Source: a virus (taxonomy: Duplodnaviria > Heunggongvirae > Uroviricota > Caudoviricetes). Taken from it: a DNA stretch of 40,150 bases. Location of the stretch: the IMG/VR virus record IMGVR_UViG_2718218304_000002. One strand, written 5' to 3'. Below, piece by piece: positions 22,604 through 31,466 of the stretch (position 1 is the first letter of the stretch; each line of letters starts with the position of its first letter). Position numbers and translations under genes: made by a program. The notes below the pieces were generated by a model. It saw only the letters and a list, made by a program, of their open reading frames with translations, ran no database searches and had not been told where the DNA came from.

Positions 22604-23942
22604 CATAAGCGCTAACTTAAGGGTTGTGGTATTACGCCTGATATGATTTAACGTGCCGATGAATTACTCTCACGATAACTGGTCAGCAATTCTGGCCCAT
22701 ATTGGTAAGCCCGAAGAACTGGATACTTCGGCACGTAATGCCGGGGCTCTAACCCGCCGCCGCGAAATTCGTGATGCTGCAACTCTGCTACGTCTGGGGC
22801 TGGCTTACGGCCCCGGGGGGATGTCATTACGTGAAGTCACTGCATGGGCTCAGCTCCATGACGTTGCAACATTATCTGACGTGGCTCTCCTGAAGCGGCT
22901 GCGGAATGCCGCCGACTGGTTTGGCATACTTGCCGCACAAACACTTGCTGTACGCGCCGCAGTTACGGGTTGTACAAGCGGAAAGAGATTGCGTCTTGTC
23001 GATGGAACAGCAATCAGTGCGCCCGGGGGCGGCAGCGCTGAATGGCGACTACATATGGGATATGATCCTCATACCTGTCAGTTCACTGATTTTGAGCTAA
23101 CCGACAGCAGAGACGCTGAACGGCTGGACCGATTTGCGCAAACGGCAGACGAGATACGCATTGCTGACCGGGGATTCGGTTCGCGTCCCGAATGTATCCG
23201 CTCACTTGCTTTTGGAGAAGCTGATTATATCGTCCGGGTTCACTGGCGAGGATTGCGCTGGTTAACTGCAGAAGGAATGCGCTTTGACATGATGGGTTTT
23301 CTGCGCGGGCTGGATTGCGGTAAGAACGGTGAAACCACTGTAATGATAGGCAATTCAGGTAATAAAAAAGCCGGAGCTCCCTTTCCGGCACGTCTCATTG
23401 CCGTATCACTTCCTCCCGAAAAAGCATTAATCAGTAAAACCCGACTGCTCAGCGAGAATCGTCGAAAAGGACGAGTAGTTCAGGCGGAAACGCTGGAAGC
23501 AGCGGGCCATGTGCTATTGCTAACATCATTACCGGAAGATGAATATTCAGCAGAGCAAGTGGCTGATTGTTACCGTCTGCGATGGCAAATTGAACTGGCT
23601 TTTAAGCGGCTCAAAAGTTTGCTGCACCTGGATGCTTTGCGTGCAAAGGAACCTGAACTCGCGAAAGCGTGGATATTTGCTAATCTACTCGCCGCATTTT
23701 TAATTGACGACATAATCCAGCCATCGCTGGATTTCCCCCCCAGAAGTGCCGGATCCGAAAAGAAGAACTAACTCGTTGTGGAGAATAACAAAAATGGTCA
23801 TCTGGAGCTTACAGGTGGCCATTCGTGGGACAGTATCCCTGACAGCCTACAAAACGCAATTGAAGAACGCGAGGCATCGTCTTAACGAGGCACCGAGGCG
23901 TCGCATTCTTCAGATGGTTCAACCCTTAAGTTAGCGCTTATG
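22604..23942 (+). mobile_element. IS186 (IS4 family), intact, 1,339 bp
   Basis: Terminal inverted repeats CATAAGCGCTAACTTAAGGGTTG at 22604 and its reverse complement ending 23942; single transposase ORF; flanked by a 10-bp direct repeat. Confidence 0.9.
22659..23771 (+). CDS. insL: IS186 transposase
   Basis: 370 aa from MNYSHDNWSAILAHIG..., matching recalled IS186 InsL; IS4-family signature ...YRLRWQIELAFKRLK. Confidence 0.9.
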   Translation: MNYSHDNWSAILAHIGKPEELDTSARNAGALTRRREIRDAATLLRLGLAYGPGGMSLREVTAWAQLHDVATLSDVALLKRLRNAADWFGILAAQTLAVRAAVTGCTSGKRLRLVDGTAISAPGGGSAEWRLHMGYDPHTCQFTDFELTDSRDAERLDRFAQTADEIRIADRGFGSRPECIRSLAFGEADYIVRVHWRGLRWLTAEGMRFDMMGFLRGLDCGKNGETTVMIGNSGNKKAGAPFPARLIAVSLPPEKALISKTRLLSENRRKGRVVQAETLEAAGHVLLLTSLPEDEYSAEQVADCYRLRWQIELAFKRLKSLLHLDALRAKEPELAKAWIFANLLAAFLIDDIIQPSLDFPPRSAGSEKKN

Positions 23943-23964: not shown

Positions 23965-24120
23965 TTACTCCCCAAGTTCGTAAGCTGTGAAGACAGCGAC
24001 CTCCGTCTGGTCGGTTCGGATTCGTACCTCGCAGAGGTCTTTCCTCGTTACCAGTACCGTCACTATAACGGTTAAACAGATGACGATCAGGGTGATTAAC
24101 ATCGCCTTTTGCTGCTTCAT
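23965..24120 (-). CDS. hok: Hok/Gef-family type I toxin (51 aa), with in-frame upstream mok-like extension to 24177
   Basis: MKQQKAMLITLIVICLTVIVTVLVTRKDLCEVRIRTDQTEVAVFTAYELGE matches recalled HokD/RelF-type toxins; ORF 23965..24177 adds 19 upstream codons; the leader upstream (- strand) has a hok-type 5' hairpin (GAGGCTATCTGCC...GGCAGATAG). Confidence 0.8.
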   Translation of the reverse strand: MKQQKAMLITLIVICLTVIVTVLVTRKDLCEVRIRTDQTEVAVFTAYELGE

Positions 24121-24168
24121 AGCCCGCTTCTTCTTGCCTTTCAGCACGTAAGAGACTAACCTACGTTT

Positions 24169-24235
24169 GTAAGGCATAGATTGGGCCCCAGATTAATGTT
24201 AAGCCTCTTGCCGGATGCGTAATATCAACTGGGAC
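24169..24235 (+). ncRNA. Putative Sok-like antisense RNA (approximate ends)
   Basis: On + strand, opposite the mok start: -35 TTGCCT (24134-24139), 17-bp spacer, -10 TAACCT (24157-24162) give a start near 24169. The 3' end is not defined. Confidence 0.3.
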
Positions 24236-24694
24236 TTTTTCTATCTGCCTTTGGTTTTCATGCCCAAGGCAGATAGCCTCAAGCCCCCGCAGCCATACTA
24301 TTTAACCCCCTTTACTTCGCCAATATGAAATCAATCAGAAAGGCGATCCATAAGAACAATAGCAAGACAATAAATTGCCACCACAGCCGCAATAGCCAAC
24401 GCACACTTGAGAACCAGCACGACAACCTCCTGTATTGGACGTGCACCTGCCCTGATAAATATGAGGCTGTCTCGTCAGTGATTCAATACAACTATTGGGT
24501 ATAGTTTCTGTGATTTTGTTCTGTAGAAATGGAATACAACAACCAGTCACTACCAGCACTTCTTTAAATACGCCAAGTCCGACGGAAGCCAACATCTAGT
24601 CTGCTTTGAACGAGGAGCTAACTTTGGTGTATATAGAAACATAATCACTACAGGTAGTTCCGAAAAAATTTCTCTATCGTGATACTTGCTGGTT

Positions 24695-25744
24695 TTATTT
24701 TAATCTCTGTAATTTTTTACGCAGAGCATTAACTCGTCTCTGAACCCCTATTTTTGGATTAAAGCTCAAAGCTTTTTCATAGGCATCAAGAGCATCACTA
24801 AAGTTACCAAGTAAATCATTTGCTTCACCTTTGATGCGAAATGCGGCTGCAGCCCAGTCAGTTCGGTCTTTCGCTCCTTCATTAAGAGCCATTTCAATTG
24901 CTTTCAATGCTTTTTGAGCATTCTTCTCACTGGGATGTTCTCTTAAAAGCGCTCTCGCGGCCTCTACTTTAAGGTTGAAATTTCCTTTATATAGACAAGC
25001 ATCTTTATACGCTTCCACGTCAATGGGAATACCGATGGCAGTGTATCTGAAGTATCCAATATTTTTGCATTTCACTTTCAGCGATCTTAGCCCCCCATTT
25101 TCATCGAGATCGAAGAAATAACTATCAGCCCATCCATACTCAGGTTTAATGGAAAATATTGTTGTTTTTGACCACAGATTTATTACCTCAAGGATATTTC
25201 CATCTTTACCGGGCGCTGCGGCTGTCTGAACCGATGCGTATTTACCACAATGAGAAATTCCGATATTATAGATATTTGCTTCATAATGACGTCTAAACTT
25301 TTCATTTCCTTCAACATCAATAGCAATCAAATCAGCTTGCAGCGCAGAACCAAATCCAGCGTCATGAACAATATAATCACCTGTGTCAGCGACAGCAGCA
25401 TTAAATGGTCGGGCAATAGTTCTGAGCTTATGAAGGATACGAAAAGTTGGTTTATTAACTAAAACAACTGTTCCAAATCCACTTTCCCGGTGCCCTCCCC
25501 TTCCATTGCCATCAAAGTCACTACAGCCTACAACCCAATGTTTGTTTGCAGACAGATACGCCTGTCCAAAAAAATAAGGAGAATCAATAGTAAGCCAATC
25601 GTTTTCGATTGATATATTTCCGTTTTGTTTCTTGAGTTTAGGAGTTATGTTAGCTGTTAACTCATGCAAACTTGAAGGCGTCATTGTTTTTGCAGAAGTT
25701 ATCCTGGAGGTAAGCAAATTGAATAGTTGTGAAATAAATCCCAT
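24695..25744 (-). CDS. Hypothetical protein with C-terminal TPR-like repeats (349 aa)
   Basis: AT-rich ORF; AGGAG 9 nt upstream of ATG; C-terminal ~100 aa form TPR-like helical repeats; N-terminal ~250 aa unrecognised. Confidence 0.5.
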   Translation of the reverse strand: MGFISQLFNLLTSRITSAKTMTPSSLHELTANITPKLKKQNGNISIENDWLTIDSPYFFGQAYLSANKHWVVGCSDFDGNGRGGHRESGFGTVVLVNKPTFRILHKLRTIARPFNAAVADTGDYIVHDAGFGSALQADLIAIDVEGNEKFRRHYEANIYNIGISHCGKYASVQTAAAPGKDGNILEVINLWSKTTIFSIKPEYGWADSYFFDLDENGGLRSLKVKCKNIGYFRYTAIGIPIDVEAYKDACLYKGNFNLKVEAARALLREHPSEKNAQKALKAIEMALNEGAKDRTDWAAAAFRIKGEANDLLGNFSDALDAYEKALSFNPKIGVQRRVNALRKKLQRLK

Positions 25745-26122
25745 TTATAAATACTCCTGAGTAGCTTTTTTAAAACGTTGGCACTTATATGGCCCTCCGT
25801 GGACAAAGTGGATCCAAAAATGTCCATTCTATCTAAGGCCAGACGAACGTTCTGGTTGAAAATCTGAGTATCGCTTCGTCGCTAATTCGCCGTTAGACAT
25901 ATTTAACCACTTTTAGCAAAAATATGCACATTTTTCATCCAAGAAAACAAAAAATCGCCATCCGCAACAATCTGCTTGTTTTCGTTAAATTTTGACAATC
26001 ACGCCTTTTTCTTCTCGGCAGAGCTGAAAAATGCTAAAGTCGTATCTGGGTGGATTAATCGTATACATGGGAAAAGTAGATACGGAAGAAAGGGGAAAAG
26101 TAAAAGGTAGATGCAAAAGAAA

Positions 26123-26155
26123 GGTCCGCTTTGAGCGAGGAGCGGACTTGTTAAT
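26123..26155 (-). terminator. Rho-independent terminator candidate downstream of the GmrSD-like gene
   Basis: Hairpin GTCCGCT-(10 nt)-AGCGGAC followed on the - strand by CTTTCTTTT. Confidence 0.4.
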
Positions 26156-26271
26156 ATCGAGCCTATCTCGTAATGATATAATTGAAGACATGTTGTAGGC
26201 CTAGCAGGATATCCATGACTCATCAAACTGTCAGTAAAACATCCCACTTACGCCTATGTTTTATTGATAGA

Positions 26272-27954
26272 TTAACCAATTTTCCATACATTTACTGCTT
26301 GTTCCGACATCCATTTTTGAAAATCATTGACAGCCTCTAAATTCCATTCAGGATACTGTGTAATCTTAGCCGCTAATTTATACTTTGATTTTCCATATTC
26401 ATTTTTCTTCACTTCAAATGAAGCTCTTTTTAGATTATCTTTATCCATCAAAACCATATTTCCTAACCTATCCTTTACGTCATTAACCCCCTCCCCAAAC
26501 GAATTGCACCACCCCTTCTCTGGGTTAAATGGACAAATATGTTCGAGTGTAACTTTTTCATGATCGCAATTATTACCAAGATATTGTTCAATTTCAGCCA
26601 AGAGAAATCTAATTTTTTTGGCTGTTTGTCTACTTGGCATTCGATGAAATTCAAAAGCATTAAAGAACACGTTATCATCAGGATATAACCTCTTAAACTC
26701 CTCCCCATTTTTCACATTGCTAGCTCTCTTGTATTCCTTATTGGAGATCTTAATCGCAATTTGATTATACATGCTTTCTTGTTCACTTGGTGATAAATGA
26801 CAAATAACATTGTATCTAATTGATAAAATATATAAATAACGAGTCAGGCTGACGAACTCATCTGGATTGAATTGATTAAAAGCTGATAGCAATACTGTTA
26901 ATGGCTGTCTAATATTAAAGAGTCTAATGCCGTTCAGATAATGAATGGCCTTCTTGTATTTAGTATCTTGCTCTGCCCACCATGAATCATTCGGGTTAAT
27001 CAATGATGCATAAATAGGTGCGGAATTTATCAGTGATCTTAAATAATCGTATGCTTCTTTAGGGGTTGTAATTACTTTTCTCATTGAAGTGTATAAATTA
27101 TTTTTTGTGACCATTTTTCTATGAGAATTATGATGATACCTAATGTAATCAGAAACATTGCTTTCTCCCAACTGATCGATAATCTCCGACCATTGCTCAT
27201 CTAACTCATCTAATTCCTCATCTCCGATTTTCTCATCCTTAGTTACTATCGAAAACAAATAGTTTTTTAAGAGATCTGGCGTGGATAACTGGACTCCTCT
27301 CGCATTTAAAGTTTCAAATACTTTGTATGCATTTAAATCATCTTGAACAACTATTTTTGTAAAAACCATACTCGAAGAAAAATCGGCAATAAACTGTGCG
27401 ATCTCAGCGCCGGTATTACCGAACTCCTTCTTTTGGAAAAAATCAAAGCATTTCTTGAGTAGCTTATTTGTAGATGTAGTTCCACGAGTATTAGGAGCTT
27501 CTAAGTTTGAACAGATGCTTTGAAAATATCTTTTATTATTTCTATTTAAATCTAGCTTGCTAACCACCTTTAATGAAACGAAGTTTTTGTTACCCACAAA
27601 TGTCTTTGTTATTGCATCAAGTCGCTCTGTGTTTTGTTCAACCTCCTCTCCTTTATCTATCAAGTTTTTAATGGCTTTCATGGCTGCTAGAACTATAATC
27701 GACAAGGTTACTAATCGTTGTTGACCGTCAATGACCTCATGTTGATACTGTTCTTTTTGTTGAAGAACTATATATCCCATATAATGAAAACCTTCATCAT
27801 CAAGTGCTGTAACATCACTCCAAAGGTCCTCCCATTGTTCTACATCCCAAGCATAGTCTCGCTGGAATCTAGGAACAATGTACTTATTTGACCCTCCAAT
27901 TAATTCATTGAAGTTCTCATTTTTTGGTTCCATTAACATAAACTGTTTGGCCAT
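26272..27954 (-). CDS. GmrSD-family type IV restriction endonuclease-like protein (DUF262 + DUF1524/His-Me finger)
   Basis: 560 aa; N-terminal DUF262 motifs (YIVPRFQRDYAWD, VIDGQQRL) and C-terminal His-Me motif (TLEHICPFNPEKGW...N...N); very AT-rich coding sequence. Confidence 0.75.
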   Translation of the reverse strand: MAKQFMLMEPKNENFNELIGGSNKYIVPRFQRDYAWDVEQWEDLWSDVTALDDEGFHYMGYIVLQQKEQYQHEVIDGQQRLVTLSIIVLAAMKAIKNLIDKGEEVEQNTERLDAITKTFVGNKNFVSLKVVSKLDLNRNNKRYFQSICSNLEAPNTRGTTSTNKLLKKCFDFFQKKEFGNTGAEIAQFIADFSSSMVFTKIVVQDDLNAYKVFETLNARGVQLSTPDLLKNYLFSIVTKDEKIGDEELDELDEQWSEIIDQLGESNVSDYIRYHHNSHRKMVTKNNLYTSMRKVITTPKEAYDYLRSLINSAPIYASLINPNDSWWAEQDTKYKKAIHYLNGIRLFNIRQPLTVLLSAFNQFNPDEFVSLTRYLYILSIRYNVICHLSPSEQESMYNQIAIKISNKEYKRASNVKNGEEFKRLYPDDNVFFNAFEFHRMPSRQTAKKIRFLLAEIEQYLGNNCDHEKVTLEHICPFNPEKGWCNSFGEGVNDVKDRLGNMVLMDKDNLKRASFEVKKNEYGKSKYKLAAKITQYPEWNLEAVNDFQKWMSEQAVNVWKIG

Positions 27955-28244
27955 ATAATTGGAATCCTCTACTTTTTTAAAATTAATTTCATGCCTAAAT
28001 TAAATGGGTTCTTGCATGATATATACTGCTAATAATTATCTTGACACTTCAGGGCCACTCTTTACCACCTTTACCGATAAAATAATACAGCATTTGTTTA
28101 AGTAATGTCCGCAGCTGGCACAAAGCAGGCAACCACACTAGTTCTACCCTGTACCATAAAAATGTCAATTTACATATGAACCAATGCTATTTAAACTAAA
28201 AATACCTATAAATGCAGCATGATTCACTGATAAAATGCCAATAT

Positions 28245-31044: not shown

Positions 31045-31466
31045 TTAATGAACAATGACAGAATCGTCGGAAGAACCGCCGCCGCTGAAATGCGCTTTCC
31101 GGTAAACGGCTTGGACTGCATCATCATGCGCATCAATTGCCGTACTTAACGCTTCCTGCGCCGCCAGTAATGCACGGCGTTCCAGGGTATCGAAGATGCA
31201 GAGTCGGTGACGCAGCTCGCGCGGAAGGATTGCCAGAATTGCTGGGATCAGCTTCTGAATTTTTTCTCTTTGCGTTTTCGTTTCACCTTTCAACCAACGG
31301 TGATAGATATTCTGCTGATTGTTCCAGTCCTTGCCTGGAACCAGGGGCAATTCGCCGCCCCCTGGCGCAGATATTCTTCAGTAATTGCATTGGCTACCCA
31401 TGCCTGCCCTTTTTCGGCTGCTAGGGCAAACAACACTGATTCGATGTGCTCATGCTTGATTTTCAT
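31045..31466 (-). pseudogene. YdaT-like protein, reading frame broken at a homopolymer
   Basis: An N-terminal segment from ATG 31466 (MKIKHEHIESVLFALAAEKGQAWVANAITEEYLRQ...) and ORF 31045..31350 are in different frames; adding one base in the C5 run at 31358-31362 fuses them into a continuous 140-codon ORF. Confidence 0.6.

Follow-up and report, generated by a model that had tools for sequence, protein, structure and literature searches.

Among described systems that bear on the locus reported here, one E. coli protein that provides defense as a single gene joins a seven-bladed beta-propeller to an Mrr-family nuclease (Vassallo et al. 2022, PMC9519451), and HEC-06, a family of GmrSD-like type IV restriction enzymes, defends as a single gene in published assays (bioRxiv 10.1101/2024.01.29.577857). 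The gene analyzed here lies next to a HEC-06 member in a 40,150-nucleotide stretch of DNA (hereafter "the window") from the IMG/VR virus record IMGVR_UViG_2718218304_000002. It encodes a 349-residue protein predicted to carry a partial beta-propeller followed by tetratricopeptide repeats (TPR), and is designated the propeller-TPR gene. The family to which it belongs is undescribed in the libraries, solved structures and literature that were searched, and its building blocks and genomic habits are familiar from defense biology. The gene itself is self-contained accessory ("moron") cargo of a prophage, carried in the interval that separates the replication module (DUF977 gene) from hokD.

The interpretation we tentatively prefer, at slightly less than an even chance, is that the propeller-TPR protein is an anti-phage factor that would act by protein recognition, either alone (by exclusion or sequestration) or as the sensor or adaptor of an effector encoded elsewhere. 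A hydrophobic N-terminal peptide on a flexible tether would probably hold the cytoplasmic protein at the inner membrane, and the four-blade partial propeller and short TPR solenoid would serve as a non-enzymatic binding scaffold. This scaffold would recognize or sequester a component of the infecting phage, or a host factor, near the membrane. The outcome would be either an outright block of infection, like that of superinfection exclusion, or a sensor or adaptor role toward a nuclease or nucleoside triphosphatase (NTPase) encoded elsewhere.

Coding Status of the Gene

The coding sequence and its ribosome binding site are located as follows.

24695-25744, minus strand: propeller-TPR coding sequence, 349 residues, ATG start, stop codon at 24695-24697 (open reading frame call and RefSeq)
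25754-25758, minus strand: Shine-Dalgarno sequence AGGAG, 9 nt 5′ of the ATG (read from the sequence)

The window had previously been annotated by a model working from sequence alone (the first-pass annotation), and the 349-codon open reading frame called there at 24695-25744 is borne out by its ATG start on the minus strand, the AGGAG site, the RefSeq match and the pattern of substitution. The identical protein in RefSeq is WP_000505828.1, named "tetratricopeptide repeat protein". The ratio of nonsynonymous to synonymous substitution rates (dN/dS) was 0.24 to 0.28 in comparisons with homologues of 88% and 81% identity. Purifying selection acts on the propeller-TPR gene, which is a true coding gene. 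Full-length homologues of its product are spread across Proteobacteria, and the gene is intact in 29 of the 31 E. coli genomes that carry it, being interrupted by IS1 in the other two (strains PSJ-16 and LR-03). In a few RefSeq genome records the identical protein is labeled "YfgM family protein"; this identity was rejected after an NCBIfam scan at E values up to 0.1 gave no YfgM match.

Predicted Architecture of the Protein

Structure was predicted with AlphaFold2 from a 24-sequence alignment, giving a model with a mean predicted local distance difference test score (pLDDT) of 86.5 and a predicted TM-score of 0.78. Residues 1-39 of the model are disordered, residues 44-235 form 17 beta-strands, and residues 243-348 form six helices. 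The following regions were assigned.

25709-25744, minus strand: conserved short hydrophobic or weakly amphipathic peptide, residues 1-12, MGFISQLFNLLT; 53% mean identity
25619-25708, minus strand: variable linker predicted to be disordered, residues 13-42; pLDDT 31-42, 14% mean identity, length varying in the alignment
25025-25618, minus strand: all-beta domain, residues 43-240, with 17 strands in about four blades, predicted to be a partial WD40/YVTN-like propeller (AlphaFold2, Foldseek)
25472-25519, minus strand: glycine-rich loop, residues 76-91, DFDGNGRGGHRESGFG; pLDDT below 50 at residues 81-84
24698-25021, minus strand: TPR-like region, residues 242-349, with six predicted helices in two to three hairpins plus a basic C-terminal capping helix (NPKIGVQRRVNALRKKLQRLK) (Pfam, AlphaFold2, PDB search)

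Residues 1-250 had been set down in the first-pass annotation as a domain matching no recognized family. This holds for sequence, in that no family was found for these residues in Pfam, NCBIfam, PHROGs or PADLOC, nor among PDB sequences, but not for structure. AlphaFold and Foldseek, which the annotation had suggested for this region, resolved a partial propeller that the sequence libraries did not, and the "unrecognized N-terminal domain" is, as modeled, a peptide at the N terminus joined by a tether to a partial propeller of four blades with a recognizable WD40-like fold. In the predicted structure the blades of the beta domain are radial, four-stranded and antiparallel. Only about four blades are present, and the matches with the best target coverage are to open fragments whose ring is completed on dimerization (6r60, Ika4). 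Pfam profiles for WD40, YVTN, NHL and PQQ repeats gave no match in the window protein at E values up to 0.1; a weak SGL match (5e-4) was obtained in one distant relative.

The C-terminal TPR repeats reported earlier are present in the model as stacked antiparallel helix pairs forming a right-handed solenoid, but Pfam recognizes one repeat, and that one below its curated threshold. This repeat, at residues 300-331, is the sole Pfam signal in the protein (TPR_1, 25.7 bits against a cut-off of 27.8; TPR_2, 22.1 bits against a cut-off of 27), and a PDB sequence search matched only designed TPR proteins.

Comparison of 161 sequences, whose median identity to the window protein is 32%, gave 43 positions conserved at 80% or above. 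These include R112-P113, A156-N157, S164, G167, Q173-T174, D181, W205, Y209 and P330-K331-x-G333. Residues D76, G84 and G91 of the glycine-rich loop are at least 84% conserved despite the poorly ordered model at this point, and at the C terminus conservation across the family reaches 81% or more for P330, K331, G333, L341 and K343. No catalytic-site signature was found among the conserved positions, and no enzymatic or NTPase domain was detected in the 349 residues using Pfam and AlphaFold2.

Residues 1-12 are conserved like the folded domains, with a mean identity of 53% versus 14% for the linker that follows. A start of the form M[GSN][FLIV][FILVM] is found in 91 of 177 near-full-length family representatives, typical examples being MGLFDWLFGKK and MGFISKLLGLL, and in 12 of the 177 (∼7%) the peptide is replaced by a predicted transmembrane helix. 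The window protein has no transmembrane helix; its first 12 residues have a hydrophobic moment of 0.41 and a mean hydrophobicity of 0.52. Because positive charges follow the transmembrane helices, and because one relative with such a helix has a C-terminal nuclease, the propeller-TPR part would be cytoplasmic. From these sequence features it is reasonable to infer that the peptide tethers the protein to the membrane or to a partner.

Three other assignments were considered for this end of the protein. The first ∼8 residues resemble the start of the Vipp1 membrane-binding helix alpha0 (MGLFDRLG...). Membership in the PspA/Vipp1 (ESCRT-III) family was rejected because the likeness is confined to these residues, the remainder being propeller and TPR with no ESCRT-III hairpin core. 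A secreted protein or lipoprotein was rejected because the sequence has no signal peptide or lipobox, and the idea of an N-myristoylated effector (MGxxxS motif) was dropped because genomic context gives it no backing.

Family Distribution and Genomic Neighbors

A profile search of 1.84 billion representative sequences identified 293 family clusters, defined at 50% identity, at E < 1e-30 and 1152 at E < 1e-10. Full-length proteins of 300 to 350 residues make up most of the membership. No match was obtained when 50,697 sequenced phage genomes were searched with tblastn, and only 12 loci with family members are found in IMG/VR. This rarity in phages agrees better with cargo of cells or prophages than with a counter-defense gene of phages.

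Prophage-borne homologues were located in several settings. Lambdoid prophages of Morganella morganii carry the gene in the same slot, where Dam, Lar and a small open reading frame precede it and the DUF1367 gene follows. On a Pantoea megaplasmid, a degenerate prophage carries it upstream of the antiterminator, and homologues were also found in a P22-like immunity region and adjacent to an integrase. In a Mu-like prophage the homologue starts only 3 nt after the S24 repressor gene, and expression in the lysogen is implied by this spacing. The Morganella, Pantoea, Mu-like and integrase-adjacent placements are usual sites for morons. On a Serratia island the family member lies between a gene for a 2138-residue NACHT-like protein and an Mrr/OLD-TOPRIM gene. 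Other homologues are beside a SocA_Panacea (antitoxin-domain) gene in Pandoraea, near AbiEii in Achromobacter, at the edge of an AlpA island in Pectobacterium, and in a Burkholderia Hcp/H-NS island after a DUF2026 gene. In Aeromonas the gene is a lone insertion among housekeeping genes. Genes for UmuC/ImpB-type (IMS) translesion polymerases were observed one or two genes away from family members in three settings unrelated to each other (the Serratia island, the Mu-like prophage and the Pantoea megaplasmid prophage), which may reflect only shared mobile-element cargo.

When two genes on each side were surveyed at 37 genome loci, the neighbors were rich in HTH/M78, HipA, SAVED, and ResIII and SF1 (superfamily 1) helicases, with PADLOC matches to MkoC, RmrA and CBASS-effector. 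All-against-all clustering of neighbors revealed no conserved partner gene, and the largest shared neighbor family was present at 4 of 38 loci. Approximately 27 of the ∼100 loci with usable upstream DNA have a same-strand upstream gene of at least 180 codons separated by a gap of no more than 100 nt. These tightly placed upstream genes belong to at least 12 families and include the following.

MkoC-like SF1 helicases (PADLOC, 2e-265)
SF1 helicase with MTES_1575 restriction endonuclease
ResIII helicase
SMC-like AAA_27 proteins
1258-residue SIR2 protein (SIR2_2)
AAA_13 ATPases
KAP NTPase
NucS/PDDEXK nuclease

Some of these partners adjoin relatives with 47% to 50% identity to the window protein. 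At one further locus a gene for a GAP1-N1 protein is upstream on the same strand, and its 171-nt gap places it outside the ∼27. Three longer members of the family have C-terminal nuclease fusions, with VRR_NUC in two and RNase_T plus BRCT in one. PDB searches with unannotated upstream partners gave nothing for three and a DyP peroxidase for one.

Two further observations concern particular partners. In the MkoC-like helicases, the match to the PADLOC MkoC model (1136 positions) is limited to positions 4-977, and Pfam lists no PLD domain; the propeller-TPR gene may occupy the place of the C-terminal part of Mokosh type II that these helicases lack. In Burkholderia sola, and in a metagenome-assembled genome labeled Sphingobium, a gene for a 212-residue DUF2026 protein is directly upstream on the same strand with a gap of ∼80 to 90 nt, and this protein is a possible lineage-specific partner.

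The first-pass annotation had pointed out that TPR modules are often sensors or scaffolds in defense proteins, and had proposed a survey of homologue contexts. As far as sequence can indicate, genomic context supports such a role, through the variable slot described below, the islands, the partner genes and the nuclease fusions. The survey located homologues in defense and toxin-antitoxin islands and behind genes for defense-type NTPases and nucleases. The same annotation had named a match to a housekeeping or structural phage protein family, or a consistent absence from defense contexts, as findings contrary to its suggestion; no such family match was found, and relatives are present in defense contexts.

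A broader generalization, which we regard as conceivable and doubtful, is that small membrane-tethered half-propeller and TPR modules are interchangeable sensor or adaptor units of immunity that serve at least eight unrelated types of effector or NTPase (Mokosh-like helicases, SIR2, SMC-like ATPases, AAA_13, KAP NTPases, PDDEXK and VRR-NUC nucleases, and exonucleases). The solo versions carried by prophages would then act on their own as exclusion factors where phage DNA enters the cell.

The Host Prophage and Its Cargo Slot

Window DNA is 100% identical to that of E. coli strain D9 and lies in a lambdoid prophage of the Rac type, whose genes run in the order racR, ydaS/T/U/V, DUF1627, DUF977, the GmrSD-like gene, the propeller-TPR gene, hok/sok, IS421, DUF1367, DUF1364, DUF1133, lysis genes, trkG and terminase. 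Both cargo genes have a G+C content of 34% to 39%, versus ∼50% for the backbone. Two features mark the downstream end of the cargo.

24619-24694, no strand assigned: approximate junction between the cassette and the lambdoid backbone on the hok/sok side (∼1300 E. coli genomes)
23965-24288, minus strand: hok/sok type I toxin-antitoxin locus directly downstream of the propeller-TPR gene, with Hok open reading frame MKQQKAMLITL... and Rfam sok at 24115-24288 (92 bits)

The junction was placed using the ∼1300 E. coli genomes that match the window from 24150 to ∼24618 at ∼88% identity, with nothing matching past that point. The common lambdoid backbone restarts ∼75 bp after the propeller-TPR stop codon.

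The interval between DUF977 and hokD in Rac/Qin-like E. coli prophages, corresponding here to window positions 24619-28240, is a variable cargo slot. Its occupants in other E. coli prophages are as follows.

Zeta toxin and unknown genes
AbiH and a 463-residue unknown protein
DUF4209 protein matching PADLOC PDC-S39
Two unknown proteins of 320 and 333 residues
Single 340-residue unknown protein with the start MSRMIIDTN

By BLAST, this other cargo is unrelated to the propeller-TPR protein. Several of the occupants have no PADLOC match and are possible further candidates. In the Qin prophage of K-12, the relBE operon lies upstream of hokD, which we take to be the corresponding position.

Other parts of the prophage were also noted. 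An IS4-family IS421 transposase gene at 22653-23771 (plus strand), located between hok/sok and the DUF1367 (NinB-like) gene, interrupts the early-right region. The ydaT homologue (window ∼31045-31466) is annotated as frameshifted by RefSeq, which suggests that the prophage may be partly defective. The same prophage also has a sieB gene.

Relationship to the Adjacent GmrSD-Like Gene

The neighboring cargo gene and the DNA that separates it from the propeller-TPR gene are located as follows.

26272-27954, minus strand: GmrSD-like type IV restriction enzyme of the HEC-06 family, 560 residues (Pfam GmrSD_N and GmrSD_C; PADLOC HEC-06, 3.8e-221)
25745-26271, minus strand: 527-bp spacer from the GmrSD-like gene to the propeller-TPR gene, holding a weak hairpin and T-run at 26114-26147

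One rival of the preferred interpretation is that the protein is an accessory subunit (sensor, regulator or localizer) of this HEC-06 nuclease, the two genes forming one system, which we judge unlikely. The gene, the spacer and the GmrSD-like gene co-occur in the same 31 of 5426 complete E. coli genomes at no less than 99.8% identity, such that both genes are always inherited together in this species, and they have similarly low G+C contents. The intervening hairpin is weak and no clear promoter precedes the propeller-TPR gene. Moreover, since relatives at 47% to 50% identity sit directly behind genes for a KAP NTPase and a NucS/PDDEXK nuclease, pairing with a nuclease or NTPase would be typical of the family. 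Note, however, that the 31 E. coli copies should be considered a single observation because they represent one near-clonal lineage.

Comparative data weigh on the other side. A GmrSD-like gene is absent within ∼8 kb of the propeller-TPR gene at 117 of 118 family loci in genomes and metagenomes, the one locus that has it being the identical E. coli cassette, and it is missing from the Morganella, Burkholderia, Pectobacterium, Serratia, Aeromonas, Pandoraea and Achromobacter contexts. Because these 117 loci have no GmrSD-like gene, the two genes are not an obligate pair, and HEC-06 is active alone in published assays. The 527-bp gap also differs from the 5 to 60 nt of tightly coupled cases. Some strains show independent inactivation of one cassette gene or the other. 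In addition to the two IS1 insertions in the propeller-TPR gene, the GmrSD-like gene is damaged by IS1 in W409, truncated in LR-45, and split into two open reading frames, likely by frameshift, in OY754416 and OY754389.

The first-pass annotation had kept the two genes apart because it saw no sign of co-transcription in the sequence, citing a hairpin and T-run following the upstream gene. These elements are present at 26114-26147: a 7-bp stem (GTCCGCT/AGCGGAC, at 26141-26147/26124-26130) with a 10-nt loop and the tail CTTTCTTTTG extending to 26114. With a folding energy of −10.5 kcal/mol and z = −0.89, so that 40 of 200 shuffled sequences fold equally well, the hairpin is too weak to show separate transcription. 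The separation of the genes thus stands on the comparative data and on the stand-alone activity of HEC-06, not on the hairpin.

No convincing sigma-70 promoter was predicted in the ∼380 bp before the propeller-TPR gene. The possibility that the gene travels with its own promoter was rejected because similarity to close homologues stops ∼35 bp before the ATG, these ∼35 bp being the only upstream DNA that close homologues in other genomes have in common. A search of Rfam found no RNA element for the spacer, the only significant match in the scanned stretch being to sok, which is located downstream of the propeller-TPR gene. A portion of ∼130 to 150 bp of the spacer (∼26006-26154) is 72% to 75% similar to unannotated intergenic DNA of 40 Enterobacterales plasmids (Klebsiella, Leclercia, Enterobacter and Cronobacter). 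This stretch and its plasmid counterparts are each located 3′ of a gene on the same strand. It has no Rfam match and may be a terminator module, a small RNA or a repeat element.

Weighing the Anti-Phage Interpretation

Several results count against an anti-phage function. No effector domain is present, and a stand-alone mechanism is therefore speculative. PADLOC-DB v2 contains no model that matches the protein at E values up to 0.1, and literature searches by accession, by keyword and in the DefensePredictor supplements returned no description of it. The amphipathic character of the N-terminal peptide is modest, and AlphaFold gives the peptide no structure. The IS1 insertions in two of the 31 genomes indicate that the gene is dispensable. 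Some family neighbors are clearly unrelated to defense, including a DyP-peroxidase protein, a DUF11 surface protein and an autotransporter. The Aeromonas homologue is a solitary insertion, and Dam and Lar, the immediate neighbors in Morganella, are anti-restriction functions. Finally, adjacency in gene-dense islands may be due to chance, and the partner counts given above carry no background expectation.

Some of these same results would suit a gene for lysogenic conversion or physiology that has no connection with phages, for example one encoding a membrane scaffold for the envelope, the stress response or interbacterial competition. The membrane-tether signature would fit such a role, as would the Burkholderia Hcp/H-NS island, the three occurrences of UmuC/IMS genes nearby, the DyP peroxidase and the isolated Aeromonas insertion. 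We nevertheless consider this improbable. With the most frequent neighbor family reaching only 4 of 38 loci, no consistent non-defense partner or pathway emerges, and coupling to helicases, SIR2, SMC-like ATPases and nucleases, together with the nuclease fusions, points instead to conflict over nucleic acids.

It is quite improbable that the gene is an early gene of benefit to the phage, encoding a counter-defense or host-takeover factor that neutralizes a host protein during lytic growth. Its orientation is that of the early-right operon, three lambdoid prophages carry it in the interval bounded by the replication and Nin/Q regions, and in Morganella it follows the anti-restriction genes Dam and Lar. 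Inhibitors of this type are also typically non-enzymatic binding scaffolds. Against this, the family is absent from the 50,697 phage genomes, and the Mu-like prophage copy follows the repressor gene, which is expressed in the lysogen. Many members are chromosomal and operon-like behind defense-type genes, or are fused to nucleases, which would be unexpected for an anti-defense protein.

A decaying remnant without function, as the IS1 insertions in two strains and the rarity of the gene (31 of 5426 E. coli genomes) might suggest, is scarcely credible given a dN/dS of ∼0.25, full-length homologues in Proteobacteria with 43 positions at least 80% conserved, and a confidently predicted fold.

If the anti-phage interpretation is correct and the protein is a defense component, the family would constitute a common and easily recognized non-enzymatic module that links many unrelated systems, with 293 clusters in Proteobacteria and beyond, and would provide a handle on the sensing of infection near the membrane. 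If the gene has no anti-phage phenotype, it is an ordinary prophage moron. For E. coli, the DUF977-hokD interval is documented as a cargo slot whose unannotated occupants can be screened.

Comparison with Known Systems

In the arrangement of propeller followed by helical repeats, the protein resembles COPI beta-prime and IFT-A, which are its top Foldseek matches. TM-scores are only 0.22 to 0.31, however, and the matched proteins, which have one or two full propellers, exceed this one in size several times over. The likeness, as seen in the predicted model, is architectural only, with no evidence of relationship.

The HEC-06 enzyme shares the low-GC cassette and the hotspot with the propeller-TPR protein, but is an unrelated protein that is active alone and is not a conserved neighbor. 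The E. coli propeller-nuclease protein of Vassallo et al. likewise brings a propeller and a nuclease together, as do the three relatives that carry VRR_NUC or RNase_T. It differs in having a complete seven-blade ring, an N-terminal nuclease and no TPR, whereas the window protein has no nuclease. The two were set apart by description, and no search hinted at homology.

The TPR/WD40 arms of Avs/STAND NTPases and of bNACHT proteins are similar in that they comprise non-catalytic TPR and propeller repeats, are encoded in defense islands and presumably recognize proteins, and one propeller-TPR relative is encoded next to the gene for the 2138-residue NACHT-like protein. PADLOC detected no homology of the window protein to the Avs, STAND or bNACHT families. 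Unlike them, the window protein is only 349 residues long, lacks an NTPase or effector domain, and has an N-terminal membrane-type peptide.

SieA of P22 and SieB of lambda and Rac are integral membrane proteins with neither propeller nor TPR. They are nonetheless comparable to the propeller-TPR protein in being small, non-enzymatic and prophage-borne, and in the moron positions of their genes. SieA and SieB act at the inner membrane, where the propeller-TPR protein would probably act as well.

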